IMG/VR virus record: IMGVR_UViG_3300046518_000226
Location: 1 to 64,000 of that record
Reading direction: 5' to 3' (one strand)
DNA length: 64,000 bases
DNA from: a virus
The notes under the pieces were generated by a model that saw nothing but the letters and a program-made list of their open reading frames with translations, made no database searches and was not told the origin of the DNA. This document shows positions 14,883-42,114 of the stretch, piece by piece. The position numbers and the translations under genes were made by a program. Position 1 is the first letter of the stretch; every line of letters starts with the position of its first letter.

Positions 14883-15055
14883 TGTCCAAGATCACTCACC
14901 TGAAACCTGCGGTCACCCAGCGCTACTGCCCCGGGTGCGCCTACCTGGTGTCACAGGTCGAGATCGAGGCCATGCGTTTCAACCTGTCTTGCCCGCGATG
15001 CCAGCAGCACAAAATGAGCGAGTTCAAGCCTGCGTGGGTGCAACCCAGATGCTGA
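14882..15055 (+). CDS. Small Zn-ribbon protein
   Basis: CPGC...CPRC; TGATG overlap. Confidence 0.65.
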   Translation: MSKITHLKPAVTQRYCPGCAYLVSQVEIEAMRFNLSCPRCQQHKMSEFKPAWVQPRC

Positions 15056-15137
15056 ATCTGGGTTTCTCCGGCATTCCACGTAGACAAAACGGGCACTTAG
15101 CGGTGCCCGTTGTTGTTTCGGGCGCTATTCGGGCGCA
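15045..15137 (+). repeat. Composite core-IHF-tandem repeat site, copy 4
   Basis: CCAGA-TGCTGAA-TCTGG; ..GCACTTA ends 15099; TTTCGGGCGCTATTCGGGCGCA 15116-15137. Confidence 0.85.
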
Positions 15138-15154
15138 ACGGCGCCGATAACTCG

Positions 15155-15169
15155 TCGTGATGCCACCAT
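15155..15169 (+). promoter_or_regulatory. Late-promoter motif, leaderless start
   Basis: TCGTGA-tgc-CACCAT-6 nt-ATG(15176). Confidence 0.8.
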
Positions 15170-15175
15170 CGGCAC

Positions 15176-18100
15176 ATGAACGAACTCGCCGCTCCAACAG
15201 CAGAACGCCGCGTAGTCCTGCTGATCAAATCCTCAAAGATCGCCCACCAAGCGGGTTACTTCCTGCTGAACGGTCGGTGGCACAAGGTCGCCCAGCACAA
15301 GCCTGCTCCGAAGGGCGCGCCTGTCGCTGCCCACCCGGTGGCCGCCGGCCTTCACCAGCCTGTCACCATGGAGCCCGGTCAGGTCGACGCGCTCAAGTAC
15401 CCTGCCGACAAGGCCGCGGCGAACTCGGAGATGGCAGCGTTCAACAACGTGCACCTGCCCAAGCTCGTGGCCCATGCCGCGAATGGCGACGCCACTGCGA
15501 TCCTCGGGCACGGCTACGGCTCGAACACCCACGGCAAGAAGGCTGCGAAGGTCGCGAACTACCTGCTCAGCGAGATGGGCAGCCCGCACCAGGTGACTGC
15601 CGGCCAGAAGGCTGGCGAGCACCACGCGGTGAAGCAGACGCCGGCCGAGCAGCCAGCCGCCCCTGAGCCGGTCAAGGCGCCCGTCGAGGAGCCGAAGGCC
15701 GTCGAGCCCGCCCCGGTCGAGGTCGCCCCCGAGAAGCCTGCCGACTCCCCGGCCATGCCCGCGTTCGTCGAGGGCAAGACCACCACGGGCGTCGTCGACT
15801 ACTACCAGAAGCAAGCCCAGAAGATCCTCGACATGGGCGCCGCTGGCGACGTGGCCGGCCTGGCAGCGATGATGGATGAAGGCCTGAAGCCGAACAGCAA
15901 GGGCAAGGTCTCCAACACGTTCGCCGGCAAGACCGCCAACAGCAAGATGCTGCTTGAGCTGCATGCTGCTACCTTGCAGCAAGCTGGCAGCAAGGTCGAT
16001 GCGGCCATGGAGGCGAATCCTCCGGCGCCGGCCGTCGAGCAACCTGTCGCAGCGATCGAGCAGCCTGCTGCACCAGCTGCGGCCAGTTCCGCCCCCACCG
16101 CGGCCAGCATGGTCGCCCAGATCCCGTGGGACAGCCTCAAGCTCCCCGACAGCAACACCAACGCCAAGACCTTCAACAAGAAGCTCGGCGAGATCCAGAC
16201 GGCGGCCGAGGCTGGCGACCTGGCGGCGCTGGAGGGCATGAAGTTCGGCGTCAACACCTACGGCAAGAAGGCCGCCAAGGTGGCCGCGGCGGCAATCGCC
16301 GCACTGAAGGAAGGCGCTCCCGCTGCTGAGCCAGCTCCCGCGCCGGAGCCAGCCACCGCGGCCGAGGAAGGCCCGAAGGACGGCGACACCAAGCCCGGCG
16401 CCAACGGTACGACCCTCGTGTTCAAGGATGGCCGCTGGCACAAGCAGGTCGCCACCGATGAACACGGCGAGATGCCGCCCACGCTGGTTCCGGTCGGCGA
16501 CGAAAACGGCACGCTCAACCTGACTGAGGCCGAGAAGCAGGCAGTATTCGACTACCTCAACAGCACCGAGGCGACTGAGGATCAGTACGCGGCCGGCAAG
16601 GAGATCTTCAAGAAGCTGCCCGAGGAGCTGAAGCAGGCGCTCAACCTGGCGGCGATCAACTTCAAAGCGTCGGCTGATGTGGCGGCTGCATCCACGCATC
16701 CGATCGACGCGGTGCCGATGCCGGACATCTCCAGCATGACGCCGGCTAGCCAGTCGAAGGTGCACACCGCGCTCGCGCTCCTACAGGCGAAGGTGAAGGC
16801 TGAAGGCCCGTCTGCCCTGAAGGGCGTCACCAAGAAGATGAACGCGTCGGGCAAGCTGATCGTCAAGCTGCCTATCTCCGACGTGCAGGGCATCAAGCTC
16901 GCGAGCAAGATCCCTGGCAGCGCGACATCGCAGGTCTACGACTACATCGAGGCCCTGAAGGCTGCGGTCGGCCCGGCCAAGAAGGCGCCGAAGGCCAAGC
17001 CTGCGCCGGTCACTGCCGCGCCGCACGCCGATCAGAACGCCATCCCGGCGATGGACGACTGGAAGCAAGTCGGGCCGCAGGGTGGCAGCAACCCGGGTGG
17101 CAAATTCGTCGATAGCTCCGGCACCGAGTGGTACTGCAAATTCCCGTCCGACCCCGACGTGGCGAAATCCGAGGTGCTGGCGGCCAAGCTGTATGGCGCG
17201 GCCGGCGTGGCAGGCCAGGACGCCATGCTGGTCACCAAGGATGGCAAGCTCGGCATTGCCAGCAAGTGGCATGAGGTCAGCAAGGCCTCCCCTGCCGAAC
17301 TGGCGAAGGTCGACGGCGTGGCCGCTGGCTTCGCGACCGATGCCTGGCTCGGCAACTGGGACGTGGTCGGCCTCGGCTACGACAACCTGCAGGTCGATGC
17401 CAACGGCAAGGCCATGCGTGTCGATGCCGGCGGTTCGCTGGAGTACCGCGCGCAGGGTGGCAAGAAGTCGTTCGGCAACGTCGTCACCGAGCTGGACAGC
17501 CTGCGCGACGCCAAGATCAACCCGCAGGCGGCCAAGGTGTTCGGCCACCTCTCGCAGGCCGACATCACCGCCTCAGTGGCGAAGGTGCTGAAGGTCAGCG
17601 ACGCGCAGATCCATGCGCTGGTGAACACCTACGGCCCTGGCACCGCCGCGGACAAAAAGGCCCTCGCCGAGACGCTGATCGCCCGCAAGGCCGACCTGCT
17701 CGCCAAGTTCCCCAAGGCCAAGAAGGAGAAGAAGCACACCTTCAAGCCGGAGAAGATCAGCGAGCCGCCGAGCTTCCTGAACTGGGGCGGCAGCGGGAAG
17801 GATGGCCCGTCGAGCAAGCCATTCCTCAACCAGGCGAACGAGAAGGCCGTCCAGTCGATCTACGAGGCCGCCAAGACCGGCAGCATCGACGCGGTCAAGA
17901 ACCTTACCGCCGAGACCTACAACAAGAGCACCGGAGAGGTCACCGGCAGCGCGCCCGTGCTCGAACACCCTTCGCAGCACGTGAAGGGCTACGCGCAGCA
18001 GGCCGTCAACGAGATCACCCAGCAGCTGAACCCGCCGAAGCGATTCCGCTTCGAGGGTGGTCACCCGCTGCACTCGCTCAACAGCGCCTACCCGTCTCAC

Positions 18101-18790
18101 AAGGGGCCGCCGCACAGCGACGCGGTCGAGAAGGCCGGCAAGTTCCTGGTGCTGGGCGAACCGGGCACCATCAGCCTTGCCAGCCTTGATCTGCCCAAGG
18201 TCACCTACGCGAGCGGCGCACTGACCCGCGGCACCTACTCGCCCGTCGCCAAGGCGGCGATCGCGCAGATGCCGGAGACGCAGAAGCAGGCGGTCAAGTC
18301 GTACACCGGCAGCTCGTACCAGGGCATGAACAGCTCGCTCTGGAGCGGCAACCCGTCCGGTGCGGCGAAGTCCGCCGGCGAGGCCCTGCACGCGCTGGGT
18401 CACGAGATCGCCCCCGGCACCGTGCTTTCGCGCAAATTGACCGTGCACGGCGAGGGCCTTGATCAAATTCTGAAATCCACTGGCAAGGTACTCCAGGAGC
18501 CAGCTATCATGTCGACGTCTATCCGGCCGTCGTCGTGGTCAGGCAACGTGCAGCTCAAACTGCATGTAGGCCCCGGCGTGAAAGGCTTGTGGGTTGGGAA
18601 AGGTTCGCTTGGGAGCAACAGCGCGCTCTCCATGAACGCAGGAGAGGACGAGCTGATCCTGCCGCCGAACACCCGGCTACTGATCCTGTCGGTGAAGAAA
18701 TCTAGCGGCGGCGATGCTGATGGCTTCGGCGCGGACTCCCATCACGTTATCGAGGCAGTTGTTCTGCCCACCCAGCAGGCCAACACATGA
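15176..18790 (+). CDS. Polyvalent protein: HipA/PI3K-like kinase domain + C-terminal R-S-E ADP-ribosyltransferase
   Basis: GGSNPGG..WYCKF..EVLAAKLY..DAWLGNWD..DNL..RVDAGG (about 17050-17710); YT..SY..MN..L, LSR, MSTS, EDELILP (about 18250-18770). Confidence 0.85.
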   Translation: MNELAAPTAERRVVLLIKSSKIAHQAGYFLLNGRWHKVAQHKPAPKGAPVAAHPVAAGLHQPVTMEPGQVDALKYPADKAAANSEMAAFNNVHLPKLVAHAANGDATAILGHGYGSNTHGKKAAKVANYLLSEMGSPHQVTAGQKAGEHHAVKQTPAEQPAAPEPVKAPVEEPKAVEPAPVEVAPEKPADSPAMPAFVEGKTTTGVVDYYQKQAQKILDMGAAGDVAGLAAMMDEGLKPNSKGKVSNTFAGKTANSKMLLELHAATLQQAGSKVDAAMEANPPAPAVEQPVAAIEQPAAPAAASSAPTAASMVAQIPWDSLKLPDSNTNAKTFNKKLGEIQTAAEAGDLAALEGMKFGVNTYGKKAAKVAAAAIAALKEGAPAAEPAPAPEPATAAEEGPKDGDTKPGANGTTLVFKDGRWHKQVATDEHGEMPPTLVPVGDENGTLNLTEAEKQAVFDYLNSTEATEDQYAAGKEIFKKLPEELKQALNLAAINFKASADVAAASTHPIDAVPMPDISSMTPASQSKVHTALALLQAKVKAEGPSALKGVTKKMNASGKLIVKLPISDVQGIKLASKIPGSATSQVYDYIEALKAAVGPAKKAPKAKPAPVTAAPHADQNAIPAMDDWKQVGPQGGSNPGGKFVDSSGTEWYCKFPSDPDVAKSEVLAAKLYGAAGVAGQDAMLVTKDGKLGIASKWHEVSKASPAELAKVDGVAAGFATDAWLGNWDVVGLGYDNLQVDANGKAMRVDAGGSLEYRAQGGKKSFGNVVTELDSLRDAKINPQAAKVFGHLSQADITASVAKVLKVSDAQIHALVNTYGPGTAADKKALAETLIARKADLLAKFPKAKKEKKHTFKPEKISEPPSFLNWGGSGKDGPSSKPFLNQANEKAVQSIYEAAKTGSIDAVKNLTAETYNKSTGEVTGSAPVLEHPSQHVKGYAQQAVNEITQQLNPPKRFRFEGGHPLHSLNSAYPSHKGPPHSDAVEKAGKFLVLGEPGTISLASLDLPKVTYASGALTRGTYSPVAKAAIAQMPETQKQAVKSYTGSSYQGMNSSLWSGNPSGAAKSAGEALHALGHEIAPGTVLSRKLTVHGEGLDQILKSTGKVLQEPAIMSTSIRPSSWSGNVQLKLHVGPGVKGLWVGKGSLGSNSALSMNAGEDELILPPNTRLLILSVKKSSGGDADGFGADSHHVIEAVVLPTQQANT

Positions 18791-19287
18791 GCAACGACCT
18801 AAACCACCACAACGACCCGACCGGCCTGGCGGCCTCAGCTGCCGAGGCGACGGGTGCGCGGCCCTACCTCGGCGATGTCAACGACATCGACCATCTGCTG
18901 CGCCAGTTCACCGAGGGCGTGACCAGCCGCTTCGCTCAGGTTGGCCGCGGCCAGCTCGCTCCGGATGCGGCGGCCGAGGCCGATCGAGCCGAGTGCCTGC
19001 GCATGGCGGAGGTGTTCGACGGTCAGGATGATGCCTACGCCACGATCGAGAACTGGAACGGCGAGGGCCTGGCAAATTACATCCGCGCCCGCATGGCCGA
19101 GTCCGTGCAGCCTGATGAGGACGATGAGCAGATCATCGCCCAGGCCTTCGCGCTGTTCGTGCACCGCATCTACGGCGCCATCACCGCGGCCGGCGCGAGC
19201 CCTGATCAGGATGCCCTTGTGGCAGCCCTGCAGGACAACATCCGCTCCTTCACCTGGCTGCTGGTGGGCCTTGAATCCAATGAGTAG
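18787..19287 (+). CDS. Acidic helical hypothetical protein (possible immunity protein or chaperone)
   Basis: Overlaps both neighbouring genes. Confidence 0.75.
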   Translation: MSNDLNHHNDPTGLAASAAEATGARPYLGDVNDIDHLLRQFTEGVTSRFAQVGRGQLAPDAAAEADRAECLRMAEVFDGQDDAYATIENWNGEGLANYIRARMAESVQPDEDDEQIIAQAFALFVHRIYGAITAAGASPDQDALVAALQDNIRSFTWLLVGLESNE

Positions 19288-20107
19288 TTCTTTCGAGGCG
19301 CAGATGGATCTGTTGATGGGCGGCGACCTGGACGAGCCTGAACCGCTCGAAAAGGCGCACGTCGGTGGGTACACCAAGAAGAACGGCACCTACGTCAAGC
19401 CGCACAACCGTGCTGGCGATGCGGCTCATACAGGCCCAGTGCACCACCACCCCCGCGCGGGAGAGAAAGGCGAAGCCGTCGTGGTCAAGGCTCCCAGTCA
19501 CGCATCGGCGCCGAGCACCTGGCACCACCCTGATGCGGTTGCCACGTTCGTGCCCGATGGCGACGTGCCGTCTTCGATCAATGGCGTCGGCCTTCGCGCC
19601 TGGAGGGATCACCCGAAGACCTCCGAGGGCTGGGATTACGTCGATGGTCAGATGGATGACCTCGACGAGCCGGCTTTCCACCTGCCGCCCGGGAAGAAGG
19701 CCGCCAGCGGTGTCGTCATTGAGGAGCCGGATGGCCGTGTGTGGCTGATCGCTCCGACCAACCAGTTCGGCGGGTACCACGCCAGCTTCCCCAAGGGCAC
19801 GGCCGAGCCGGATCTGTCGCTCCAGGCCAACGCCATCAAGGAGGCGTTCGAGGAAAGCGGATTGAAGGTCGAGATCACCGGCTTCCTCGGTGACTACGAG
19901 CGCACCACCTCGGTGGCCCGCATGTACAGGGCTAAGCGAGTGGGCGGGACGCCGATCGCCATGGGCTGGGAGAGCCAGGCCGTGCACCTGGTGCCGAAGA
20001 CGCACCTCTACGACCACCTCAACATGTGGTCTGACCATGGCATTGCCGAAGTAATCGGCGCCGGTGAGCCGCCTTCACCGAAAGTAACTGCAAGTATTCG
20101 TAAATAA
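19280..20107 (+). CDS. Nudix hydrolase with N-terminal KAHVGGYTKKNGTYVKPH segment
   Basis: Nudix box GTAEPDLSLQANAIKEAFEESG. Confidence 0.9.
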   Translation: MSSSFEAQMDLLMGGDLDEPEPLEKAHVGGYTKKNGTYVKPHNRAGDAAHTGPVHHHPRAGEKGEAVVVKAPSHASAPSTWHHPDAVATFVPDGDVPSSINGVGLRAWRDHPKTSEGWDYVDGQMDDLDEPAFHLPPGKKAASGVVIEEPDGRVWLIAPTNQFGGYHASFPKGTAEPDLSLQANAIKEAFEESGLKVEITGFLGDYERTTSVARMYRAKRVGGTPIAMGWESQAVHLVPKTHLYDHLNMWSDHGIAEVIGAGEPPSPKVTASIRK

Positions 20108-20182: not shown

Positions 20183-20542
20183 ATGTGGATTTGCCTATCC
20201 GATGCCTTCTTGAGCATCGTTCATAAAGACTGTGAGCCTGATGAGCTGCTGGTTCGCGCTCGTCGCCAGGGCGACATCCAGAAAGTATTCCCGAATGCCG
20301 TGGTCAAGAAGACCATTGGCAACGACTATCTCTATCGCGCCGCAATCAAGCGCGCCGAGGTGGCCGAAGCGTTCGCTACTCTGGCGCTGGATACGATTGA
20401 CTATCCGAACTTCAAAAACACCGTTCGCGACAACAAGCTGCACAACGCCTTCAATGCGATCTGGCACACGGTCGCCAAGTTGCAGGCGATCGCGCCCTAC
20501 AGCAGTCGTCGTCCTGCTCGCCAGCGGGGTCTCGGCCTGTGA
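20183..20542 (+). CDS. Conserved hypothetical protein
   Basis: MW....AFLSIV..LLVRARR..DY.YRA..IDYPNFK. Confidence 0.8.
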   Translation: MWICLSDAFLSIVHKDCEPDELLVRARRQGDIQKVFPNAVVKKTIGNDYLYRAAIKRAEVAEAFATLALDTIDYPNFKNTVRDNKLHNAFNAIWHTVAKLQAIAPYSSRRPARQRGLGL

Positions 20543-22224
20543 ACGCCGTTACCGGAACCATCCACGGCGAGCTGATCGAGGACGTGAGCGAGTTCTTCGC
20601 TCCCATGGCGAGCGATCTGGTAGACAGCCTCGTCGGTGAGTACGACGCCACCCGCAAGCGATTGGAGCACATGGCGGCTGCCGTGTCCTCCGAGGCCTGC
20701 CGCGGCGTGCTGCACTACTTCGTTGAGGGCAACGTCGGCGATCAGCGCCACAGCATGCCCACGACTGTCGGGGCTTTGTTCGCGCTGGAAGGCGCCGTCG
20801 CGCACCTCAATGCCGACTTCTGGAACCGCGCCCTGCGCCTGACCGACGTCATCGACTACATGCCGCAGAAGCGGCGCGATGAGTGGTTCGAGCAGATCCG
20901 CAACCCGCTGGGCAAGAAGAAGCACCGCAGCAGCTGGGACAAGGATGCGCCCGAGTGGGAAGTCGCGCCCCTTCCTGAGTTCGAGGAGGACAGCGTCCGC
21001 GCCACCCTCTCTAGCCTACTTGCGAGCCGTGCCAAGTTCCTCGCCGAGCGCGTCGACGGCATCTTCCGCAGCCTGAGCCGCCAGCACGTCACCAACCAGC
21101 CTCAGGGCTTCAGCAAGCGCATGATCATCGCTGGCGTGCACAGCTACGGCACGGCCGGGCAAATCACCGACCTGCGCTGCGTGATCGCCAAGTTCATGGG
21201 GCGCGACGAGCCCAAGCACGGCGCCAGTGACCCGATCATCAAGGCCGCCGGCCGCCAGAACGGTCAGTGGATGACGATCGACGGCGGCGCGCTCCGGATC
21301 CGCGTTTACGGCGGCGTCGGCACTGCGCACCTGGAAGTTCACCCCGAGATGGCCTGGCGTCTGAACGCCATCCTTGCCAGCCTGTACCCGGCGGCGATCC
21401 CGGCCGAGTTCCGCGAGAAGCCGAAGCGCGCGAAGAAGATCAAGGACTTCGAGCTGTTCGACCGCCCGCTGCCGTTCGCGGTGGTCGACGTGCTGGCCCA
21501 GATGAAGCTCGGCTGGGAGCGCAAGGAGAACCCGCACCACCGTGAACACCCATTCCGTGATGTGCCGCGCACTCGCCGCTTCGATCACCATGGCGAGCGC
21601 GACAAGGCGACCATCGCCGAGGCCATCAAGGTGCTGGAGGCGATCGGCGGCGTGAAGGATGCGAAGGAGAGCTACTGGCGCTTCGACTACGAGCCCGCCG
21701 ACGTGCTCGACCAGATCGTGTGCTCAGGCTGCATCCCAGACCACAAGTCGCACCAGTTCTACCCGACGCCGCAGACCGTGGCCGAGGCCGCGATCGAGCT
21801 GGCGATGGTTGGCGCCGAGCCTGGGATGAACTGGCTGGAGCCGAGCGCAGGGCAAGGCGGGCTCGCCGACCTGATGCCCAAGGACGATACCTTCTGCGTC
21901 GAGATCAGCGACCTGCACTGCCAGATCCTCAAGGCGAAGGGGCACATCGTTGAGCAGGCGGACTTCCTCAAATGGGGGCTTTCGATCGGCAAATACGACC
22001 GCATCGTGATGAACCCGCCTTTCAGCGAAGGCCGCTGGCAAGCCCACGTCGAGCACGCTGCGACCATGGTCAAACCTGGTGGACGCCTCGTGGCTATTCT
22101 GCCGCCAACGGCAAAGAACAAGGACTGGCTGTCAGACTTCGATTTGGAATTCTCCAAAACCTACAGCAACGAGTTCGCCGGGACGAGCGTGTCGGTGGTG
22201 ATCCTGACCGCAACACGCAAGTAA
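20539..22224 (+). CDS. DUF4942-like domain + class I SAM (adenine) methyltransferase
   Basis: QFYPTP, LEPSAGQGGLA, VMNPPF. Confidence 0.88.
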   Translation: MNAVTGTIHGELIEDVSEFFAPMASDLVDSLVGEYDATRKRLEHMAAAVSSEACRGVLHYFVEGNVGDQRHSMPTTVGALFALEGAVAHLNADFWNRALRLTDVIDYMPQKRRDEWFEQIRNPLGKKKHRSSWDKDAPEWEVAPLPEFEEDSVRATLSSLLASRAKFLAERVDGIFRSLSRQHVTNQPQGFSKRMIIAGVHSYGTAGQITDLRCVIAKFMGRDEPKHGASDPIIKAAGRQNGQWMTIDGGALRIRVYGGVGTAHLEVHPEMAWRLNAILASLYPAAIPAEFREKPKRAKKIKDFELFDRPLPFAVVDVLAQMKLGWERKENPHHREHPFRDVPRTRRFDHHGERDKATIAEAIKVLEAIGGVKDAKESYWRFDYEPADVLDQIVCSGCIPDHKSHQFYPTPQTVAEAAIELAMVGAEPGMNWLEPSAGQGGLADLMPKDDTFCVEISDLHCQILKAKGHIVEQADFLKWGLSIGKYDRIVMNPPFSEGRWQAHVEHAATMVKPGGRLVAILPPTAKNKDWLSDFDLEFSKTYSNEFAGTSVSVVILTATRK

Positions 22225-27009: not shown

Positions 27010-27035
27010 TCCTCCGCTCCGGCGGGGGAGCGCCG

Positions 27036-27056: not shown

Positions 27057-29657
27057 ATGGCGAAAATCAAACTCACGTTGCCCGTGCTGCACCCGGCACA
27101 GAAAAGAATTGTCGAGAAAGCGTCCCGTTTCAATGCTGTCGCCATGGGCGAGCAGGCAGGGAAAACCACGCTCGGTATCGACGTGCTCATTGCATCGCCG
27201 GCCGGGGCCATCTCGGGCAAGGCGCCGGTAGCCTGGTTCTCCGCCAGCAAGGAAGACCTCACGGTTGCGCGCCGGAAGATCCTCGCTGCCCTGGACGGAT
27301 TCATCGATCGCCGGATCAGCCGCAAGCAGGTCAAGCTCAAGAACGGCAACAGCATCTACTTCTTCTCCCTCGATGAGACCACCGATGTGGCCGAGCAGTT
27401 CGGCCTTGTGGTGGTCGACGACGTGCGCAAGGTCGAGCTGTTCGCGGATCTCTGGGAAGATGTCCTGTTGCAATCCCTCAAGCAGCATGGCGGTCAGGCC
27501 TGGCTGCTGTCCGGCGCCTACGGCAAGCGCAATGACTTCTACCGCCTGTTCCAGCACGGACTGGCCAGTAATGAGTGGAGCTGCTGGCAATACGACTCCT
27601 TCTGCAACCCGCACCTGCCGACTGAGATCGCCGATGAGGCGGACACCGTCACCGAGCTGGAGTACCGCCAGCGGTTCTGCGCCGAGTTCCTGGACATCGC
27701 GGTCGAGCTGTCAGACGCGCAGCGCATCCTCGGGCCGAACGAGCGGTTCATCGAATGGTGCGAGCGCCTGGAGTCCGAAGGCCTGAAGGTCGATGGCGTG
27801 CCCTTCACTCTGTCCGATCGGCCGGCGATGCGGTTCATCTACGAGCTGATCCCGCTTACCCGCGAGGAGGCGTTCGAGCGCGTCGACGTGATCATGAAGT
27901 GCACTCAGGTGGGCTTCACGGTGATGGAGATGCTGGCGGCCATCTACCTGGCCCTGCGCTTCGCACCGGCGAAGATCGGCATGTTCATGCCGTCGACCTC
28001 GCTGGCCTCCGGTAAGTCCTCTGAGCGCTTCCTGCCGATCGCGCGCACCGTGCCGGCCGTGCACCGCCTGATGACCGAGAAGAACGCCTCCGGTGGCCGT
28101 GGCGGCGAGGGTAACGTGCTGATCCGGAACCTCGGGCCGTCGCGCTTCCACTTCCTCTGGACATCTGGCGCAACCGCGACCGAGTCGTTCCCGATGGACG
28201 TCATCTCGTTCGACGAGGTGCAGGAGATGCTGATCGCCGACATGGAGAAGGTGGTCGAGCGTCTGTCAGCATCGAAGCTGAAGTACACCCTGATGGGCTC
28301 CACGGCGAACTGGCCCGACAGCGACATCCACTGGTGGTATCAGCGCGGCACCCAGCACCAGTTCCACACCGAGTGCCCCCACTGCGGCGAAGGCCAGGTG
28401 CTGGACGAGCACTTCCCTGAGTGCATCCAGTTCGACCCGGAGCACCCGAAGCGCAAGCAGCGCGGCAACACCGTCCTTTACGGCGAGTACCGCTACCGGT
28501 GCCACGCGTGCGAAGGCTGGATCGATGACCCGCAGATCGGCGAGTGGATCCCCAAGAACCCAGACGCGGAGATCCGGTCGGTTCACTTCCCGCAGTTCCT
28601 GTCGCCGACCATCAGCCCCCGGAACATCATCGAGGCGTTCCGCAACAACGACAGCATGAAGGGCTTCTACAACCGGAAGCTCGGCAAGCCGTACACCGAC
28701 CCGTCGCAGGTGCCGGTCAACCTGGAGATGCTGAACGCCTGCGCCCGGGAAGGCATGCGCCTCGGCGTCGAGTGGAAGACGCGGGCCAAGGGCACGTTCA
28801 TGGGCATCGACCAGATGGGCGCCTTCAACGTGGCGATCATCAAGGAGCGGCTGAAATCCGGACAGCAGGCCGTAATCCACATCGAGTACATCTTCGATGC
28901 GGATCCGTTCATGCGCTGCAGCGAGCTGATGAACTCTTATGGCGTGCAGTGCTGCGTGGTGGAGACGCTGCCGAACTTCAACGATGCGCACCGCTTTGCG
29001 CAACGCCATCCTGGCAAAGTGTTCCTGGCTGGATACGGGAACATGGATGGCAACATGATGATCTGGGGCGACACCCCGACCACCAACACGTCAGACCGCC
29101 GGACTGATGAAGAAGCCCAGCAGAAGTACACCGTGCGGCTCGACCAGTTCAAATGCATGCAGACGTCGATGGCCCGGTTCGCCACGCTGACCTGCGTCTT
29201 CCCGGATCCGACCGGCTTGGTGCAGGACTACACCGAGAAGGGCGAAACCACCCGGGTGGCGGTCTGCAAGGAAGTGGCCTTCTTCCACTTCACGCGCACG
29301 GCGCTGGTGGTGGAGAAGGACGAGGACGAAAAGAAGTACAAGCGCAAAGTGGTCAAGGTCGGCATCGACCCCCACACCAGCTACGCCAACATGCTCTGCG
29401 ATGTGGCTTGGTCGCGCGCCCACGGCACCAGTACGTTCCTCATGCCGGACGTGTCGAATGAACCGCACGACCCGACGCCGAACAAGATCCGCGTGCCGGG
29501 CTTGGCCGGTCAGATGATTGAGGAAATGAACCAGCTGTCGGGCGATGTCTGCGGCCGGTGCGTGAACCGGAACCCTGACACTGGTATGTGCTCGGAGCTT
29601 GAAGCGAGGACGCAGCCATCTGACCCTGGCTGCTGGGCGTTTATCGCGGTGAGGTAA
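27057..29657 (+). CDS. Terminase large subunit (GpA-like) with extra N-terminal degenerate terminase ATPase domain
   Basis: LHPAQ..GEQAGKT..VVVDD, then VIMKCTQVGFT, ISFDE, CPHC/CHAC, FMGID. Confidence 0.9.
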   Translation: MAKIKLTLPVLHPAQKRIVEKASRFNAVAMGEQAGKTTLGIDVLIASPAGAISGKAPVAWFSASKEDLTVARRKILAALDGFIDRRISRKQVKLKNGNSIYFFSLDETTDVAEQFGLVVVDDVRKVELFADLWEDVLLQSLKQHGGQAWLLSGAYGKRNDFYRLFQHGLASNEWSCWQYDSFCNPHLPTEIADEADTVTELEYRQRFCAEFLDIAVELSDAQRILGPNERFIEWCERLESEGLKVDGVPFTLSDRPAMRFIYELIPLTREEAFERVDVIMKCTQVGFTVMEMLAAIYLALRFAPAKIGMFMPSTSLASGKSSERFLPIARTVPAVHRLMTEKNASGGRGGEGNVLIRNLGPSRFHFLWTSGATATESFPMDVISFDEVQEMLIADMEKVVERLSASKLKYTLMGSTANWPDSDIHWWYQRGTQHQFHTECPHCGEGQVLDEHFPECIQFDPEHPKRKQRGNTVLYGEYRYRCHACEGWIDDPQIGEWIPKNPDAEIRSVHFPQFLSPTISPRNIIEAFRNNDSMKGFYNRKLGKPYTDPSQVPVNLEMLNACAREGMRLGVEWKTRAKGTFMGIDQMGAFNVAIIKERLKSGQQAVIHIEYIFDADPFMRCSELMNSYGVQCCVVETLPNFNDAHRFAQRHPGKVFLAGYGNMDGNMMIWGDTPTTNTSDRRTDEEAQQKYTVRLDQFKCMQTSMARFATLTCVFPDPTGLVQDYTEKGETTRVAVCKEVAFFHFTRTALVVEKDEDEKKYKRKVVKVGIDPHTSYANMLCDVAWSRAHGTSTFLMPDVSNEPHDPTPNKIRVPGLAGQMIEEMNQLSGDVCGRCVNRNPDTGMCSELEARTQPSDPGCWAFIAVR

Positions 29658-33730: not shown

Positions 33731-34324
33731 TTACAACAGGCCGCCAGTGTAGGCGTTTGGATTGTCGTTGAACGCCGCCAGCATCATGGCTTGGAGTGGT
33801 TCGGAGATACGGGCGCGGAACTCTGGGCTGTCGGAGACAAACGCCAGCACATCAGCACGGCGATACATGCCGCTGTCCAAGGCGTTCTGCCAGAAGGTGT
33901 TCTCATCGGCGGTCACAATGCGACCCAGGCAGTCGGAGTACAGCTTGCTGATGAAAAAGGTGTTCGACATCGTGCTCGGATAGCGGTTCAGGTACTCCTG
34001 CGAGGTCGCCCAATAATTCTGGACGAAATTGCCGAGGTTCGTGGTGGTGTAGCCGTTGGCGTCGCCACCTTCGCGGAGTTTCTGCACCCCGAAGTCGAAA
34101 CCAGAGGGGTCGGGCTTGCGGCCGAATACGACCTGGTAGAGACGCGCGATCGGCAGAACTTCACGCTCCAGAGTAGGGCTGCGAAACAGTTGGTTCAGCA
34201 GGCGGTGGATACCATAGCCGGCGTTGAGCAGCACGCCGTAAGTGCTCTGCCAATCGGCTGGAGCGGTCGCAGTGCGGAAGTAGACCGAGAAGATCTTGGT
34301 CACGGATGGGCTGTAAGAAATCAT
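33731..34324 (-). CDS. DUF4214-domain protein, paralog 2
   Basis: RLYQVVFGRKPDPSGFDF..SQEY; FISKLY..LGR....FW...L..G..RADVL....DSPEF. Confidence 0.85.
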   Translation of the reverse strand: MISYSPSVTKIFSVYFRTATAPADWQSTYGVLLNAGYGIHRLLNQLFRSPTLEREVLPIARLYQVVFGRKPDPSGFDFGVQKLREGGDANGYTTTNLGNFVQNYWATSQEYLNRYPSTMSNTFFISKLYSDCLGRIVTADENTFWQNALDSGMYRRADVLAFVSDSPEFRARISEPLQAMMLAAFNDNPNAYTGGLL

Positions 34325-34456
34325 AGGCACCTCAGGTTGGTTGAGGCTTTATGATGCTGTCACGCCAATTGTCGGGCATAAAAAACCCGCCGATTTGAGC
34401 ATCACTTACTCCGAGGAGGTTGAGAGGCTTGGCGGGTTTTTGTGGTGCTCGGGTGG

Positions 34457-35338: not shown

Positions 35339-35353
35339 TCGTGACGCCATGAT
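35339..35353 (+). promoter_or_regulatory. Late-promoter motif, leaderless start
   Basis: TCGTGA-cgc-CATGAT-7 nt-ATG(35361). Confidence 0.8.
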
Positions 35354-35360
35354 TTCAGCC

Positions 35361-36989
35361 ATGACTGATATCGCGCTCGAAGTTGCCCACAACCCAAATG
35401 CTCCCAAAGATGAGCAGCAGGACGCTATGCGCGTTGCAACGCAGGCGGCTGTTCCTTCGTCCGTGCCGGACATGCTGCCGCTCGTGAAGTACGTGGCCGA
35501 GCAATATGCGCAGCAGCAGGAGGAGAGCCAGTTCGCCAAGGCGTTCATGAAGCCGAACGTGATCCCGTTCCCGAGCCGCAGCGTCGAGGAAGGCAAGGCC
35601 GGCATGCAGTCGGTGTGGCTGGACGATCAGCGCCTGAACATCCAGGGCGAGTGGTACGAGAAGCCTACGGCCTTCAGCTTCGACACGATGCGCACCATGG
35701 CGGATCAGACGCCTATCCTGGCCGCGGTGATGCTGACCCGTCAGCGCCAGGTGAAGCGCTTCTGCCGTGCTACTGAGGGCGGCAAAGGGCCTGGGTTCCA
35801 GATCAAGCTCAAGGATGGCACGGCCAAGGTCGGCGCCGAGGAGCAGAAGACCATTCAGCTCCTGCAAGGCTTCTTCACCAACTGCGGCTGGGAGAGCAAG
35901 CCTCGGCTGCGCCAGCGCCTACGCCGGGACAACTTCTCGGGCTTCATGGCGAAACAGATTCGGGACACGCTGATCATGGACAGCGCGCCCATCGAGTTGG
36001 AATGGAAGCGCGATCGCAACAAGGGGATCGATGGCTTCTACTCGGTCGATGGATCGACCATCCGCCTTTGCAACGAGGTCGGCTACCAGGGCGACGACGA
36101 GATCTACGCCTTGCAGGTGCTGGAAGGCCGCATCCGCGCCGCCTACACCCATGACGACCTCATCTACGTGCCACGCAACCCGCGCTCCGACGTGCTGGCC
36201 GGCGGCTACGGCATGTCCGAGACCGAGCTGCTGATCAAGGTGGTCACCGGCTTCCTGAACGCGTTCACGTACAACACCAAGTTCTTCGACTCGAACGCCA
36301 TTCCGAAGGGGCTGCTGCACCTCAATGGCGACTACGACGAAGCCGATTTGAACTCGTTCCGTCGCCAGTGGAACGGCATGGTCAAGGGCATCAACAACGC
36401 CTGGACACTCCCGGTGATGGTGTCCAAAAACAGCGAGTCGAAGGTCAACTTCGAGCACTTCAATGCCGACGTGAACGATGTGATGTTCGGCAAGTGGATG
36501 ACCTTCCTCACCTCGATCATCTGCGCCATCTACGGCATGGCTCCGGACGAGATCAACTTCGAGAGCTTCACCACCGGCACCAGCTCGCTGTCTGGCAACG
36601 ACACCGAGGAAAAGCTGATCAACTCCAAGGACAAGGGGTTGCGACCGCTGCTCGCGCACTACGAGGATCTGTTCAGCGACTACATCGTCGCCGAGTTCGG
36701 GGACAAGTATGTGTTCCGGTGGGCCGGCCTGGACGAGAAAGATCCGAAGCAGCTGTGGGACGAGGAAAAGACCCTCAGCACCTTCAACGAGGCCCGCGCC
36801 GATCGCGGGCAGGATCCGATCAAGCAGGTGTGGGCCGATGCGCCGCTCAACCCGAACCTGATCGGCCCATGGATGCAGGAGAACATGGGGCAGCAAGAGC
36901 CGGCGCCAGGCGACGACGCACCAGCCAAGAAGGACAAGGAAGACCTCGCCAAGTCGTTCGGCATGCCAGTTTTCAGGATTGAACCATAG
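35361..36989 (+). CDS. Portal protein
   Basis: YVPRNPR..GYGMSETE..FF..NAIPKGLL..ICAIYGMAPDEINF..KGLRPLL..TFNEAR. Confidence 0.93.
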   Translation: MTDIALEVAHNPNAPKDEQQDAMRVATQAAVPSSVPDMLPLVKYVAEQYAQQQEESQFAKAFMKPNVIPFPSRSVEEGKAGMQSVWLDDQRLNIQGEWYEKPTAFSFDTMRTMADQTPILAAVMLTRQRQVKRFCRATEGGKGPGFQIKLKDGTAKVGAEEQKTIQLLQGFFTNCGWESKPRLRQRLRRDNFSGFMAKQIRDTLIMDSAPIELEWKRDRNKGIDGFYSVDGSTIRLCNEVGYQGDDEIYALQVLEGRIRAAYTHDDLIYVPRNPRSDVLAGGYGMSETELLIKVVTGFLNAFTYNTKFFDSNAIPKGLLHLNGDYDEADLNSFRRQWNGMVKGINNAWTLPVMVSKNSESKVNFEHFNADVNDVMFGKWMTFLTSIICAIYGMAPDEINFESFTTGTSSLSGNDTEEKLINSKDKGLRPLLAHYEDLFSDYIVAEFGDKYVFRWAGLDEKDPKQLWDEEKTLSTFNEARADRGQDPIKQVWADAPLNPNLIGPWMQENMGQQEPAPGDDAPAKKDKEDLAKSFGMPVFRIEP

Positions 36990-37029: not shown

Positions 37030-37290
37030 ATCAAGCCCACGTATTCCTTGAAGCCTGACAGGGCCGGTGGGGGCTAAGCCACCGGATACTTTTCACCTTG
37101 CATCGCTCAAGGTGCTGTCGCGGTAACGCGGCAAGCCAGGCGCAGCGGAGAAGCGCAGCCCTCTGCCCAAACGGTGCCACTCCTCGCCGAATGGGTTCGT
37201 CGCAAAGGGGGAAGTCCAGCTTGTAGGTCGGTGCCGCCCAACTCCCCACTGGGAGGCACCGACCGGGGCGATCTCTCCCACCAGAACCAG
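37030..37290 (+). ncRNA. Candidate structured RNA between portal and MuF genes
   Basis: Late motif at 37008; at least five stems, including a GNRA loop. Confidence 0.45.
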
Positions 37291-37299
37291 GAATCGTCC

Positions 37300-38451
37300 G
37301 TGTCCCTCATCCTCGACCTCACGCCCGTCAGTCAGCACGCAACCGACGCGGCGCTCGAAATGCTGTTCAAGTCCACACACGACCATGACAAGGGCATCTG
37401 GAACCCGCACGAGTCCGTGCTGATCCGGCGCCTCGTCGAGCTGTTCAGCGACCGCGGCCTCGATCGGCTTGAGCACGTGAAGCAGCAGATCGTCGCGTGG
37501 GAGAATGGCGACCACCACAAGCCCGGCGCCCCTATGCCGTCCAACGTGCCAGGCATGATGACGCGCTGGTCGGATGCCGAGCTGGGTCTGGTGCGCGTCT
37601 ACCTGGAAGCCTTGCCGCCGGGCTCGTGGACAATCGACGACCACATGATGGCGGTCGACTACGTCGTTCAGCGCTACCTGCCAGCCGACGAGCTGCGCAC
37701 CGAAGCGGAGTGGATGAGCACCCGAGCCAGCCTCATGGGCAAGGTGCAGGCCAATATGGAAGGCCAAGCCACACCGCAGCAGGCGGACAAGATCCTCGCT
37801 GCCCTGCCGTCCACCCGAGCCGAGGCGTCTCACCAGTTCAAGCTCAACCAGCAGCAGCAATCCGTCATGGCGTTCGGCAATGCCCGGGCAGCTGAGAACG
37901 TGCGCGCGCTGACCGAGGATGTGCGCCACCGGATGCGCGGCGCGGTCATGCAGCACCTGGAGCAGCAGCAGACGCTGCCGGCCGGCGTGCCAGGTGAAGC
38001 GCTCCAGTCCAAGCTGGTCGATCAGTTCGGCACCCTGAACCGGGACTGGCGGCGCATCGCGGTGACCGAGGCCGGCGAGTGCCAGACGCAGGGTTTCATC
38101 GCCAGTCTGAAGCCTGGAACGAAGGTGCGCCGCGTCGAGATGTACGCGACTGCCTGCAACTTCTGCAAAAAGATCCACGGCAAGATCGCCACCGTCGTCT
38201 CTCCCGACAAACCCGACAAGGACTGGGAGAACGAGATCTGGGTCGGCAAGAACAACATCGGCCGCTCGGCGTCGCCCCGCAAACGCGTTGGCGACACCCT
38301 GGTAGACCGCGACCCGGACGAGATGTGGGCTCTCCCCGCCGGCCTGGCCCATCCGCACTGCCGCGGGCGGTGGGTGCTGGTGATCGAGGACGAGGCCGGT
38401 GATGATCCTGACTTCGCGGAATGGCTGCGCGAGACGCTTGGCGGGGAATAG
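37300..38451 (+). CDS. MuF / head morphogenesis protein
   Basis: RDWRRIAVTE, ACNFC, HPHCRGRW; AGGA RBS + GTG. Confidence 0.88.
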   Translation: MSLILDLTPVSQHATDAALEMLFKSTHDHDKGIWNPHESVLIRRLVELFSDRGLDRLEHVKQQIVAWENGDHHKPGAPMPSNVPGMMTRWSDAELGLVRVYLEALPPGSWTIDDHMMAVDYVVQRYLPADELRTEAEWMSTRASLMGKVQANMEGQATPQQADKILAALPSTRAEASHQFKLNQQQQSVMAFGNARAAENVRALTEDVRHRMRGAVMQHLEQQQTLPAGVPGEALQSKLVDQFGTLNRDWRRIAVTEAGECQTQGFIASLKPGTKVRRVEMYATACNFCKKIHGKIATVVSPDKPDKDWENEIWVGKNNIGRSASPRKRVGDTLVDRDPDEMWALPAGLAHPHCRGRWVLVIEDEAGDDPDFAEWLRETLGGE

Positions 38452-39112: not shown

Positions 39113-39997
39113 ATGAACCAAGACGAACAGCTGTTAGCTGATATCCCCGAATTCCTCAGCATCTCCGAGATGCTGAAAGCCACGCCTTCTGAGGAAGGTG
39201 GGGAACGCTTCATCTATCTGGAAGCCAGCAACGAGGGCGTCGACCAGCAGGGCGAACGCGTTCTTGCCAAGGCGCTGGAGGATAGCGCGAGCCACTTCCT
39301 CAAGTTCGGCAACATCGACCTCGACCACTTCACGATCATCGGCCAGCGCATGGGCTTGGCGAACCCGATGGCCTACGAAGTCGGCCGCCCTGTGGACGTG
39401 ACAGTTCGCGGCGATCGCACCTTCGTCAAGGCGCAGCTCTACAAGGGCACAGGCGAACTCGCGAAGAACGCGAACATGGTCTGGGAGTCGATGACCCAGC
39501 TCAACCCGCCGGCGCGCTGGTATCCGTCCGTGGGCGGCTCGGTGCTCGCCAAGAGCGTTCAGCTCGACCCGGCGACCAACGAGAAGGTCGGCTTGGTCAC
39601 TAAGGTGCGGTGGACGAACATCGCCCTGAGCCGCACGCCGGTGAACCAGCACCTGCCAGCCGCGGGCACTGTGCCTCTGGCAACCTTCGCCAAGTCGCTC
39701 GGCGGTCTGGTGATGAGCAAGTCGCTCACCGCTGGCTACGGCTCGGACATGGCGAACCTGTCGGGCGGTGCGGCCATCCGCATGCAGTCGCTCGATGGTG
39801 TTCCGCAGTCTTACTACGAATTCCGCGACGAGATTTCTGGCGCGGTCAGCAGTCGTGAGGCCAATAATCAATCCCGAAACGGCTTGATCGCGTACTCAAC
39901 GCAAAAATTCAATCTGTCGGCTGAAGAAGCTGCGGAATGGGTGGATCGCTTCCTGAGCGATTTGAAAAAACATCAATCTAACCGGAGCAATCCATGA
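39113..39997 (+). CDS. Prohead protease
   Basis: EAS...DQQGE..FGNIDLDH..SVGG..IALS..PVN; located before scaffold and capsid genes. Confidence 0.85.
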   Translation: MNQDEQLLADIPEFLSISEMLKATPSEEGGERFIYLEASNEGVDQQGERVLAKALEDSASHFLKFGNIDLDHFTIIGQRMGLANPMAYEVGRPVDVTVRGDRTFVKAQLYKGTGELAKNANMVWESMTQLNPPARWYPSVGGSVLAKSVQLDPATNEKVGLVTKVRWTNIALSRTPVNQHLPAAGTVPLATFAKSLGGLVMSKSLTAGYGSDMANLSGGAAIRMQSLDGVPQSYYEFRDEISGAVSSREANNQSRNGLIAYSTQKFNLSAEEAAEWVDRFLSDLKKHQSNRSNP

Positions 39998-40635
39998 GCA
40001 AATTTCAAGAATTGCTCGCTGCTATCGACACTGAAGCGGCAGAGCAAAGTGAACTCGCCAAGTCCATTCCCGCAGTCACCCCGGCTGACGACAAGGCTGT
40101 CGCTGCTGCGGCAGGCGATGAAGGCGCAGGCGATGCAGCTATCACCGACGCTGATAAAGCGAAAACCCAAGCCGAGCAGGATCTGGCCAAGTCCCTGAAC
40201 CCTGAAGACAACGTCCAGGTGATCGAGGTCGACGAGCTGATCAAGTCCATGGGCGACCTGAATCAGCGCTTCGACGAAAACGAAGGCCTGATGGCGAAGG
40301 CTCTCGGTGACACCCTGAACCTGGTCAAGAACCAGGGCGAGATGATCAAGTCGCAGAACGAGCTGATCAAATCGCTGACCAATCGTGTCGATGCTCTGGG
40401 CAGCCAAGGCGCTGGCCGCAAAGCATTGCTGGTTGCTACCGAGCGCGCCCAGCCTGGCGAACACCTGGCGAAGTCGCTGCCGCAGCCTGAGGCCGCCAAG
40501 CCTCAAGAAATTCTTGCCAAGTGCCTGAGTGCACAGAAGGACGGCAAGCTCACTGGTGCCGAGGTTGCTCGCGCCGAATCCCAACTGAACCATGGTTTGG
40601 CCGTAGATCCGGCAATCCTGGCTCGTATTTCCTAA
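39994..40635 (+). CDS. Scaffold-like protein
   Basis: Acidic, coiled-coil, many [LM]xK[SA] motifs. Confidence 0.75.
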   Translation: MSKFQELLAAIDTEAAEQSELAKSIPAVTPADDKAVAAAAGDEGAGDAAITDADKAKTQAEQDLAKSLNPEDNVQVIEVDELIKSMGDLNQRFDENEGLMAKALGDTLNLVKNQGEMIKSQNELIKSLTNRVDALGSQGAGRKALLVATERAQPGEHLAKSLPQPEAAKPQEILAKCLSAQKDGKLTGAEVARAESQLNHGLAVDPAILARIS

Positions 40636-40650
40636 GCCCCGGAGGCATTA

Positions 40651-42114
40651 ATGGACTTTCTCAACAACCCCAATACCTCCGGCGCATCCATTGCCGGGGA
40701 CATGGGTCAGGAAGAACTGGTCGCACTGCAGAAGTCTCTGCAAGCTGGCTACGGTTCCGACATGAACGACCTGAGCGGCGGTTCCGCACTGCGTATCCAG
40801 TCGCTGGATACCACGCTGCAAGCAACCGTGCAGGACAACCAGCACTTCGCGCTGTTCAACGCCCTGCCGAAGCCCAAGGCTACCGCGGTGCTGGACGAAT
40901 GGACTGAGCAGTCCGAAATCGGTGGCTTCCTGGGCGATAGCTTTAACGACCAGGATGGCGCCGCAGCTGAGACCGCCGGTCAGTACGACCGCCGCATCGG
41001 CCGCGTGAAGTACATGACCACCTACCGCAAAATCCCGATCGTTCTGCAAAGCCAGAACAACATCGCGGACGCGGTGTCGCTGGAAACCATCAACGGCTCG
41101 AAGCAGCTGCTGACTTCCATCGAGTTCAGCCTGTTCGAAGGTAACGACCTGGTCACCCCGAAATCGTTCGCCGGCATCCGCCAGCAGATCGAAAGCCTGG
41201 GCAGCGCCGACCACGTGATCGACATGCGTGGCGAGTCGCTGATGAGCATCGACCCGATCGCCAAGGCTGCTGAAACCGTGTTCGGCTTCGGTAACTTCGG
41301 CAAGATCACCGACCTCTACCTGCCGCCGAGCGTTCAGACCGACCTGAACATGAACCTGGATCCTGCGTTCCGTGTCGCGCTGACCAACAGCCCGAACAGC
41401 ATCGCACTGGGCACCGACGTGCGTGCGATCCAGACCTCCTACGGCGCGATCGCGACCAAGAACGACGTCTTCATCCGCGATGAGAAGATGCAGAAGCCGT
41501 TCGAGATCCGCAACTCGATCCACGCCGCTGCCGCTGTCGCCAACGCCGCGTTCAAGCCTGCGAGCATGACCGCTGTTGCCGCTGCTAACGGCGGAGCCGA
41601 CTCGTACTGGGAAAATGCCCACGCTGGTGCCTTCGTGTACTTCGTGACCGGCATCAACCAGAACGGCGAGAGCCAGGTCACCGGCGCAACCGGCGGCGCT
41701 GCTACCGTCGCTGCTGGCGGCAAGGTCACCATCACCATCAAGGCGTCCGCTTCGGGCACCGAGACCGGTTATGTGATCTACCGCGGTCGCAAGGATGGCA
41801 CCGACGCTCTGACCGACGTGCGTGAGATGACCCGCGTGCCGAAGAACACCGGCGGCGACACCGTGTACGTCGACCTGAACCGCGAGATCCCGGGCACCAC
41901 CTGCTCCTACGCTCTGAACCTGTCGCCAAGCGACCACGCCATCGCATGGCGTCAGTACCTGCCGATGATGAAGATCCCGATGGCAGCGGTGAACAGCCCG
42001 ATCATCCCTTGGCTGCAAATGATCTGCGGTTACCTGCGGATCACCAAGCGCAACCAACACGTGGTGATCAAAAACATCGTGCCTCGCGGCGCGGCCTGGA
42101 AGCCTTTCGGCTGA
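40651..42114 (+). CDS. Major capsid protein (SPO1/Herelleviridae-like)
   Basis: KSL.AGYG....GG.ALR.QSLD..IEFSLFEG..F.GI..QI..VIDMRG. Confidence 0.9.
   Translation: MDFLNNPNTSGASIAGDMGQEELVALQKSLQAGYGSDMNDLSGGSALRIQSLDTTLQATVQDNQHFALFNALPKPKATAVLDEWTEQSEIGGFLGDSFNDQDGAAAETAGQYDRRIGRVKYMTTYRKIPIVLQSQNNIADAVSLETINGSKQLLTSIEFSLFEGNDLVTPKSFAGIRQQIESLGSADHVIDMRGESLMSIDPIAKAAETVFGFGNFGKITDLYLPPSVQTDLNMNLDPAFRVALTNSPNSIALGTDVRAIQTSYGAIATKNDVFIRDEKMQKPFEIRNSIHAAAAVANAAFKPASMTAVAAANGGADSYWENAHAGAFVYFVTGINQNGESQVTGATGGAATVAAGGKVTITIKASASGTETGYVIYRGRKDGTDALTDVREMTRVPKNTGGDTVYVDLNREIPGTTCSYALNLSPSDHAIAWRQYLPMMKIPMAAVNSPIIPWLQMICGYLRITKRNQHVVIKNIVPRGAAWKPFG

Follow-up and report, generated by a model that had tools for sequence, protein, structure and literature searches.

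Introduction

Proteins that phages inject into the host act before any phage gene is expressed and form a first line against host defences; apart from T4 Alt, the P1 Dar proteins and the N4 virion RNA polymerase, few of them have, to our knowledge, been characterised. Alt is made late in infection and its N-terminus is trimmed by the prohead protease, the cleavage motif of T4 being L/I-x-E, whereas in the HK97 pattern cleavage occurs after a lysine. In temperate phages, MuF-fused polymorphic toxins carry a C-terminal toxin, often an ADP-ribosyltransferase (ART), on a head-associated carrier, with a small gene downstream. Iyer et al. (2017; PMC5512222) state that the phage head carries Alt and delivers it by injection, and they predict the same fate for polyvalent proteins, the large multidomain proteins of phages and conjugative elements in which the ART is the commonest domain. 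Passages of a later study (Iyer et al., 2022; PMC9503650) predict that Nudix enzymes are packaged in myoviruses and describe a packaged ART/Nudix theme. Here we analyse a three-gene cassette of the virus record IMGVR_UViG_3300046518_000226, using the first 64 kb of this 94,122-bp record (positions 1 to 64,000, hereafter the window). The cassette encodes a protein of 1204 amino acids with a kinase and an ART domain, a small acidic protein and a Nudix protein, and it is probable, as far as the sequence can tell, that these enzymes form a set that is made late, packaged in the head, trimmed by the prohead protease and injected.

Like the polyvalent proteins described in passages of PMC5512222, the large protein (P0001) is a single long phage polypeptide combining disparate enzymatic domains, kinase and ART, and its gene stands beside packaging and head genes, to which it is linked by strand, by a distance of 7 kb from the terminase gene, by a shared late motif and by conserved synteny. 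Unlike the kinase mentioned in those passages, which has no C-terminal subdomain and occurs in prophages of Verrucomicrobia, Chlamydia and Bacteroidetes, it has a full CtkA/HipA-like domain. Unlike the MuF toxins, it has no MuF domain, the MuF-like protein of this phage being the product of a separate gene (37174-38451). An ART and a Nudix domain are found on one polypeptide in HopAG1, a type III effector of Pseudomonas syringae (PMC9963460), that is in the genus of the phage host; the likeness is one of described domains only, and in contrast to the cassette HopAG1 is delivered by type III secretion into plants and has a different domain order. Neither a fixed cassette of three genes that includes an acidic helical protein nor the h-x-K-[SA] leader was found in the passages of PMC5512222 and PMC9503650 retrieved by term searches.

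Results

The phage and the organisation of the cassette

The region exhibited 80-83% DNA identity with the Pseudomonas phages Jeremy, Dolphis and Touem01, which are myoviruses of 92-95 kb. An integrase is annotated in the Jeremy record and has a homologue at about 64.6-65.9 kb of the genome studied here. The phage is a temperate myovirus of Pseudomonas, with a genome of about 94 kb.

The three genes follow each other on the + strand: the large protein (15176-18790; 1204 amino acids, 125 kDa, isoelectric point 8.6), the middle protein (P0002, 18787-19287; 166 amino acids) and the Nudix protein (19280-20107; 275 amino acids). The TGA of the first gene and the ATG of the second share four bases (ATGA), and the stop of the second overlaps the Nudix ATG at 19280, with an overlap of 8 bases. 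An open reading frame (ORF) of 388 amino acids beginning at a TTG was considered as the Nudix gene and rejected, the ATG at 19280 being the start used in relatives. Upstream, a terminator-like hairpin (15088..15111, + strand), with a 10-pair stem followed by GTTGTTGTTT, closes a small zinc-finger gene. The three overlapping genes, together with the hairpin that ends the preceding gene, are therefore read as one translationally coupled unit that has upstream signals of its own. A previous reading of the window from its letters alone (the sequence-only reading) had proposed such a coupled operon, and in this it was right; its assignment of the cassette to an early region found no support, since the cassette shares its strand with the structural genes and is located 7 kb 5' of the terminase gene.

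The large protein joins a CtkA-like kinase to a predicted arginine-type ADP-ribosyltransferase

The first 610 residues of the large protein consist of short modules with Ala/Pro-rich linkers between them; five such stretches, at about residues 41-80, 161-200, 281-320, 361-400 and 601-640, match the linkers previously noticed. The repeated GRWHK motif that had also been pointed out is present at residues 33-37 (15272..15286, + strand) and 419-423 (16430..16444, + strand), the second copy falling within a unit GDTKPG..G.LVFKDGRWHK of which the Yersinia orthologue has up to 4 copies.

The following domain (residues about 620-850; 17033..17725, + strand) was recognised as an atypical protein kinase, read here as CtkA/HipA-like and of the Ser/Thr type, by its fold alone. 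The region of residues about 611-855 had no match in Pfam, in NCBIfam, or in phmmer and profile searches of the PDB, and HipA_C (PF07804) gave no match to the large protein at E 0.1 or better, with sub-threshold matches in two homologues. The fold search with a high-confidence model recovered a two-lobed kinase fold whose nearest relative was CtkA of Helicobacter pylori (PDB 3akj/3akk/3akl; score 17.1, 216 residues aligned, root-mean-square deviation 3.7), followed by CotH (13.9), LepB (12.0), HipA/HipT (10-12) and, at about 8, PI3K/PI4K and eukaryotic kinases. In a language-model atlas, the nearest named neighbour clusters carried PI3_PI4_kinase, HipA_2 and LepB_N. Sequence identity with CtkA was 17%, a relationship undetectable at the sequence level, and unlike CtkA the kinase is here embedded in a protein of 1204 amino acids. 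The expected key residues occur in order: a GSNPGG glycine-rich loop (637-642), K655, E666, D722-A-W-L-G-N727 and D750-A-G, their roles being assigned by motif order and not by a residue-level structural alignment. E666, D722, N727 and D750 were invariant among 32 sequences and K655 was conserved in at least 90%. Judging from the model, the HipA/PI3K-like kinase call of the sequence-only reading is correct, with CtkA as the closest solved relative. No HipB-type antitoxin or helix-turn-helix partner is adjacent, the cassette neighbours of the kinase-ART gene being the middle and Nudix genes.

The C-terminal part contains a mono-ADP-ribosyltransferase core of the R-S-ExE type (residues about 1040-1200; 18293..18775, + strand). 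It matched Pfam PF03496 at residues 1100-1177 with 31.9 bits for a cut-off of 23.4, as well as the PHROG families "ADP-ribosyltransferase exoenzyme toxin" and "Alt-like RNA polymerase ADP-ribosyltransferase". The latter match, over residues 1027-1119 (E 5e-6), relates the domain to T4 Alt, itself an R-S-E arginine ART; the similarity covers part of the ART core, and unlike Alt the large protein adds a kinase and long repeat modules. A profile built from homologues matched Vis (2e-9), VIP2 (4e-9), C3-like toxins, SpvB, Tre1, CdtA and the iota and C2 toxins. When aligned with SpvB, R1086, S1113-T1114-S1115 and E1157-D-E1159 fell on the catalytic motifs, and none of the catalytic residues varied in a set of 21 diverse homologues, the most distant with 49% identity. 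In the Alt/VIP2/C3 clade, an ExE as opposed to a QxE points to an arginine acceptor. The ART call of the sequence-only reading is thus right as well, and the sequence evidence confirms the C-terminus as a predicted arginine-type R-S-ExE mono-ADP-ribosyltransferase of this clade.

The Nudix protein and the middle protein

The third protein belongs to the Nudix hydrolases, as had been proposed, with a match to PF00293 above threshold (40.3 bits for a cut-off of 21.1). It is composed of a leader (LEKA, residues 23-26), followed by GYTKKNGTYVKPH, a conserved middle part and the Nudix fold at residues about 135-270. The Nudix box (residues 173-195; 19796..19864, + strand) reads G-x5-L-x7-K-E-A-x-E-E-x-G-L, and G173, E188, E191, E192, G194 and L195 were invariant in six orthologues. 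Compared with the consensus GX5EX7REUXEEXGU, the first glutamate is replaced by Leu179 and the arginine by Lys187 (an arginine in Aeromonas ST4). The nearest PDB matches, with weak E-values, were Ap4A hydrolase (the best, E 9e-5) and NUDT6. The protein is likely active.

The middle protein is acidic (isoelectric point 4.3) and its AlphaFold model is a helical bundle (predicted local distance difference test score 87.5). Pfam gave weak sub-threshold matches to TetR_C and DUF2322 only; the PDB gave no sequence match, and Foldseek found no PDB structure at E 0.001 or better. Its matches in BFVD were uncharacterised phage proteins only, apparently of its own family. A word-based search gave 30 relatives; phmmer detected the protein in 8 of 9 metagenomic cassettes. 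By this conservation, the middle protein reads as a core part of the cassette.

A late-promoter-like motif precedes the cassette and the structural genes

The sequence-only reading had also placed a late motif ahead of the operon. An exact copy of this late-promoter-like motif, GTCGTGATGCCACCAT, indeed lies at 15154..15169 on the + strand and ends 6 nt before the ATG of the large protein. Further exact copies were found at 27035, 39091 and 54704, each ending 6 nt before a start codon: that of the terminase gene at 27057, that of the prohead protease gene at 39113 and that of a gene for a virion structural protein at 54726. Copies with one mismatch precede the portal gene and the adaptor gene at 45574. 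The degenerate pattern GTCGTGAYRNCAMNAT matched 14 times in the window for 2.2 expected, a number reached by none of 100 shuffles. Its sites, including 27035, 35338, 39091, 45552, 54704 and 58719, end 6-7 nt before starts that have no Shine-Dalgarno sequence. The 3' hexamers of the motif (CACCAT, CACTAT, CAGGAT) resemble a -10 element, and because the distance between motif and ATG is fixed at 6-7 nt, leaderless mRNAs are predicted for the terminase, portal, protease, adaptor and baseplate genes as well as for the cassette.

The motif was kept before the same operon in Jeremy, Touem01, Yersinia phage fHe-Yen8-01 and Aeromonas ST4, that is in three genera. In Jeremy, copies stand before the portal, the protease, the adaptor, one baseplate gene and the lysis region, and another before the gene that immediately precedes the ART gene. 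The whole 92.5-kb genome of fHe-Yen8-01 contains only 4 copies, three of them before structural operons and one before the ART polyvalent gene, and in Aeromonas ST4 one copy precedes the ART gene. Since the motif precedes structural genes here and is conserved in relatives, co-regulation of the cassette with the virion genes is well supported at the level of sequence, as the sequence-only reading had suggested. In the Yersinia and Aeromonas relatives, the motif is located 22-45 nt 5' of the ATG at most sites.

A second element, the tandem repeat TCGGGCGC-N3-TYGGGCGC, is present just upstream (15118..15136, + strand) and is distinct from the late motif. The 94-kb genome contains 9 exact copies, all on the + strand: five are intergenic, at 1501, 5924, 10676, 15118 and 23982 of the window, 29-136 nt before genes that include an AraC-type regulator, and four, accompanied by inverted copies, are grouped in the intergenic region beside the integrase gene (66013-66446 of the genome). 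We considered these repeats as the late motif and rejected them, none being located before head or tail genes and four being clustered beside the integrase gene. From their distribution, they may be the binding site of a regulator or of a recombinase.

Both enzymes begin with a motif shared with head proteins

The large protein begins with a leader (residues 1-18; 15176..15229, + strand) that ends in LLIK|S and is a candidate prohead-protease site or capsid-targeting signal, its putative cleavage motif L-x-K|S differing from that of T4. L-x-K-[SA] occurs once in the large protein (residues 16-19), once in the Nudix protein (residues 23-26) and not in the middle protein. The background in the proteome is 0.87 copies per 1000 amino acids. 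The head module contains five copies in the 213 amino acids of a scaffold-like protein (39994-40635, an assignment without PHROG backing), two in the prohead protease (39113-39997), one in the major head protein (40651-42114; residues 26-29), one in the MuF-like minor head protein (residue 64; phrog_115) and one in the portal protein (35349-36989), 15 residues before its C-terminus; all of these genes except the scaffold-like one were identified by PHROG matches, like the terminase gene (27057-29657). That both enzymes start with the motif of head proteins (LIKS, LEKA), as had been proposed, is thus borne out.

Jeremy and the Yersinia phage both keep the head-module sites as h-x-K-[SA]; in the capsid protein, where the motif is at the likely maturation site, the example reads ...LQK|SLQAGYGSD, versus ...LIK|ALEAS and ...LTK|ALQAS. 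Among the homologues of the large protein, 109 of 119 have h-x-K-[SAG] within their first 35 residues, and the exceptions look N-terminally truncated. The lysine of the Nudix leader is invariant in all six orthologues, as are the G, Y, G and V of the segment GY.[KR]..G..V that follows it. The most economical reading of this pattern would be that the leader is a recognition site shared with the head proteins and read by the prohead protease inside the procapsid, a pattern that resembles the cleavage after lysine in HK97. If so, both enzymes would be residents of the prohead.

A separate similarity links the protease to the capsid protein. The C-terminal part of the protease (residues about 200-230) is a near copy of the capsid segment (residues 27-55) that follows the putative cleavage site (SLTAGYGSDMANLSGGAAIRMQSLD versus SLQAGYGSDMNDLSGGSALRIQSLD), and the same is observed in Jeremy and fHe-Yen8-01. 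This copy may be a means for the protease to co-assemble into the shell.

Conservation of the cassette and fusions between its domains

The order large protein, protein of about 160 amino acids, Nudix was recovered in 7 cultured phages (Jeremy, Dolphis, Touem01, Yersinia fHe-Yen8-01, E. coli ECML-606-1, Morganella Mecenats66 and Aeromonas ST4) and in 9 out of 10 metagenomic viral contigs. The cassette is located a few kb 5' of the terminase gene in all relatives whose examined stretch includes this gene. The orthologues of fHe-Yen8-01 exhibited 58% (large), 36% (middle) and 51% (Nudix) identity with the proteins studied here.

Homologues of the large protein number more than 600; they range from 1054 to 2060 amino acids, are mostly encoded on phage contigs of 90-100 kb, and insert WGR, ART-PolyVal, PBECR, LPD, InPase or Nudix domains. 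Such insertions are a signature of polyvalent proteins as defined in passages of PMC5512222. An exhaustive search with the kinase domain recovered 4755 representatives of clusters formed at 50% identity, of which 3806 reached an E-value of 1e-10 or better, mostly in proteins of 1000-7000 amino acids, some with several copies of the domain. The kinase domain is also joined to the ART families PF01129 and DRAT-like, in differing orders, and is fused to MuF (PF04233, Phage_Mu_F) in 2 of 32 homologues; the MuF-like protein of the window had no match among the collected homologues by phmmer. In Gordonia phage Phendrix, a hypothetical protein of 1479 amino acids encoded directly after the portal gene (L018 6695-11134), without any Pfam match, has the same kinase domain, with 34% identity, towards its N-terminal end; the family therefore extends to the head modules of actinophages.

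The Nudix protein is similarly connected. Out of 120 longer homologues, 68 are Nudix-kinase proteins of about 500-550 amino acids and 31 have the arrangement Nudix-kinase-(repeats)-ART. In two metagenomic contigs (L020 and L021), the kinase domain is present on both the large protein and the Nudix protein. The kinase family, which is widespread and without a Pfam model, is thus repeatedly wired to ARTs and Nudix enzymes. The fusions and genomic contexts, as read from the sequences, tie the three activities together and tie the kinase family to phage heads.

Discussion

The data are most consistent with a packaged set of enzymes. In this scenario, a phage-specific late promoter would drive an apparently leaderless transcript from which three translationally coupled proteins are made. 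Along with the scaffold and the MuF-like protein, both enzymes would be incorporated into the procapsid, be trimmed by the HK97-type prohead protease after the lysine of h-x-K|[SA], and accompany the DNA when it is ejected into the next host. The proteins of this host would be modified by the ART and the kinase, for takeover or for anti-defence, and the Nudix protein would remove or trim NDP-X molecules such as ADP-ribose, signals derived from nicotinamide adenine dinucleotide (NAD) or protein-bound ADP-ribose. The acidic protein of 166 amino acids would be an obligate partner, most likely a chaperone or adaptor, or else an inhibitor quieting the enzymes in the producing cell. We infer the timing, the cleavage, the packaging, the injection, the substrates and the role of the middle protein, and we consider that the interpretation given by the sequence-only reading is partly supported, its domain calls being right and late co-regulation well supported.

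Several observations speak against this scenario. The evidence for packaging in the phage studied here is indirect: it comes from the conserved leader, the constant position of the cassette 5' of the terminase gene, the MuF fusions of the kinase domain and the portal-adjacent protein of Phendrix. The function of the promoter, its timing and the leaderless starts are deduced from sequence only. The one experimental hint is in the GenBank record of fHe-Yen8-01, which bears the note "particle associated" on all three orthologues; the same note is carried by 52 of its 136 genes, including the primase, methylases, the endolysin and the terminase, and is thus compatible with packaging but non-discriminating. 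No paper on fHe-Yen8-01 was found, and the literature yielded no virion proteomics for fHe-Yen8-01, Mecenats66, ECML-606-1, phiT5282, Touem01 or Dolphis, the Mecenats66 paper containing none. A Pfam search of the large protein did not find MuF (PF04233), portal or other known head-anchoring domains. The leader motif is short, with about 3.7 N-terminal occurrences of L-x-K-[SA] expected by chance proteome-wide; the argument drawn from it therefore rests on conservation and not on one match. Finally, the middle protein has no leader motif, and the Nudix box has lost its first glutamate.

The strongest competing explanation is that the kinase, the ART and the Nudix protein are not independent effectors but steps of one pathway acting on a single substrate derived from NAD or ADP-ribose, or on a protein adduct. 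The fusions described above, with 68 of the 120 longer Nudix homologues being Nudix-kinase proteins and 31 more adding an ART, could be taken in this sense, as could the pairing of the kinase domain with three ART families (PF03496, PF01129 and DRAT-like). However, these are fusions and domain pairings and not chemistry, the solved structures nearest to the kinase fold are those of protein or lipid kinases, and passages of PMC5512222 indicate that polyvalent proteins typically combine unrelated activities. We therefore regard a shared pathway as unlikely. Its most complete version, in which the kinase, the ART and the Nudix protein would constitute one coupled, capsid-delivered pathway on a composite NAD-derived modification or metabolite, with the protein of 166 amino acids as regulator and h-x-K|[SA] as a hitherto unrecognised procapsid leader read by HK97-type prohead proteases, seems doubtful to us; examples would be the conversion of ADP-ribosyl-arginine to phosphoribosyl and/or phosphorylated forms, or the conversion of immune ADP-ribose signals.

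The three proteins could also act only inside the producing cell, late or throughout infection, without being packaged, like ModA/ModB of T4 or the gp0.7 kinase of T7, the leader being then a folding or interaction element. This would fit with the large protein having no head-anchoring domain, with the indirect nature of the packaging evidence and with the unselective mass-spectrometry label of fHe-Yen8-01. Yet late expression would be a poor time for host takeover, the leader has the motif and the position common to substrates of the head protease, MuF fusions and giant proteins adjacent to the portal also contain the kinase domain, and synteny with the packaging genes is kept across genera, so that we find this possibility improbable.

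That the cassette is a toxin-immunity, lysogenic-conversion or prophage defence module, with a kinase-ART toxin and the protein of 166 amino acids as immunity factor, directed against competing bacteria, superinfecting phages or eukaryotic cells, is very hard to defend. In its favour, the phage is temperate (integrase homologue at about 64.6-65.9 kb), both R-S-ExE ARTs and kinases of the HipA-like type are known as classical toxins, the small gene directly 3' recalls the immunity genes of polymorphic toxins, and CtkA, the nearest structural relative, is carried on a conjugative element with a PDB entry titled as a proinflammatory kinase. Against it, the promoter motif is that of the structural genes, the cassette is fixed near the terminase in lytic-looking and temperate relatives alike, the Pfam search found no secretion or Rhs/PAAR/MuF delivery domain in the large protein, which has no HipB-like partner, and the PADLOC defence-system models gave no match to the three cassette proteins at E 0.01 or better.

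The general idea of a packaged set, with packaged polyvalent ART proteins and packaged Nudix enzymes, was already predicted in passages of PMC5512222 and PMC9503650. What appears to be new is the family of CtkA-like kinases, tightly coupled as they are to Nudix and ART enzymes, the conserved acidic partner, the candidate capsid-targeting leader and the predicted leaderless late promoter. The leader would be a simple candidate capsid-targeting and cleavage signal for phages with HK97-type proteases, and the motif a compact late promoter whose transcripts are predicted to be leaderless. If the enzymes form one pathway, this would imply a new NAD/ADP-ribose chemistry in the conflict between phages and hosts; if they are independent, the cassette would still be a tractable model of polyvalent effectors in culturable phages of Pseudomonas, Yersinia, Aeromonas, Morganella and E. 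coli.

Other features of the region

The neighbours of the cassette are a methylase, an AraC-type regulator and hypothetical genes. Directly 5' of the operon, and followed by the terminator, is an ORF of 57 amino acids (14884-15055, + strand) with two CxxC pairs, zinc-finger-like in appearance, which had no Pfam or PHROG match and could be a small regulator. At the equivalent position in Touem01, the 945 bp located 5' of the orthologue (L002 5637-6582) contain tRNA-like sequences, for instance GGTTCGAATCCCG. On the 3' side, a protein of 561 amino acids (20539-22224, + strand) combines DUF4942 with a methyltransferase-like C-terminus; relatives have it annotated as "RE endonuclease" or "DNA restriction methylase", and in Aeromonas ST4 too it adjoins the cassette. 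Finally, the interval that separates the terminase gene from the portal gene contains a match to the Rfam abiF RNA motif (RF03085) at 34385-34436 on the - strand, with 48.7 bits for a gathering score of 37; the match is located 5' of a minus-strand ORF (33731-34330).

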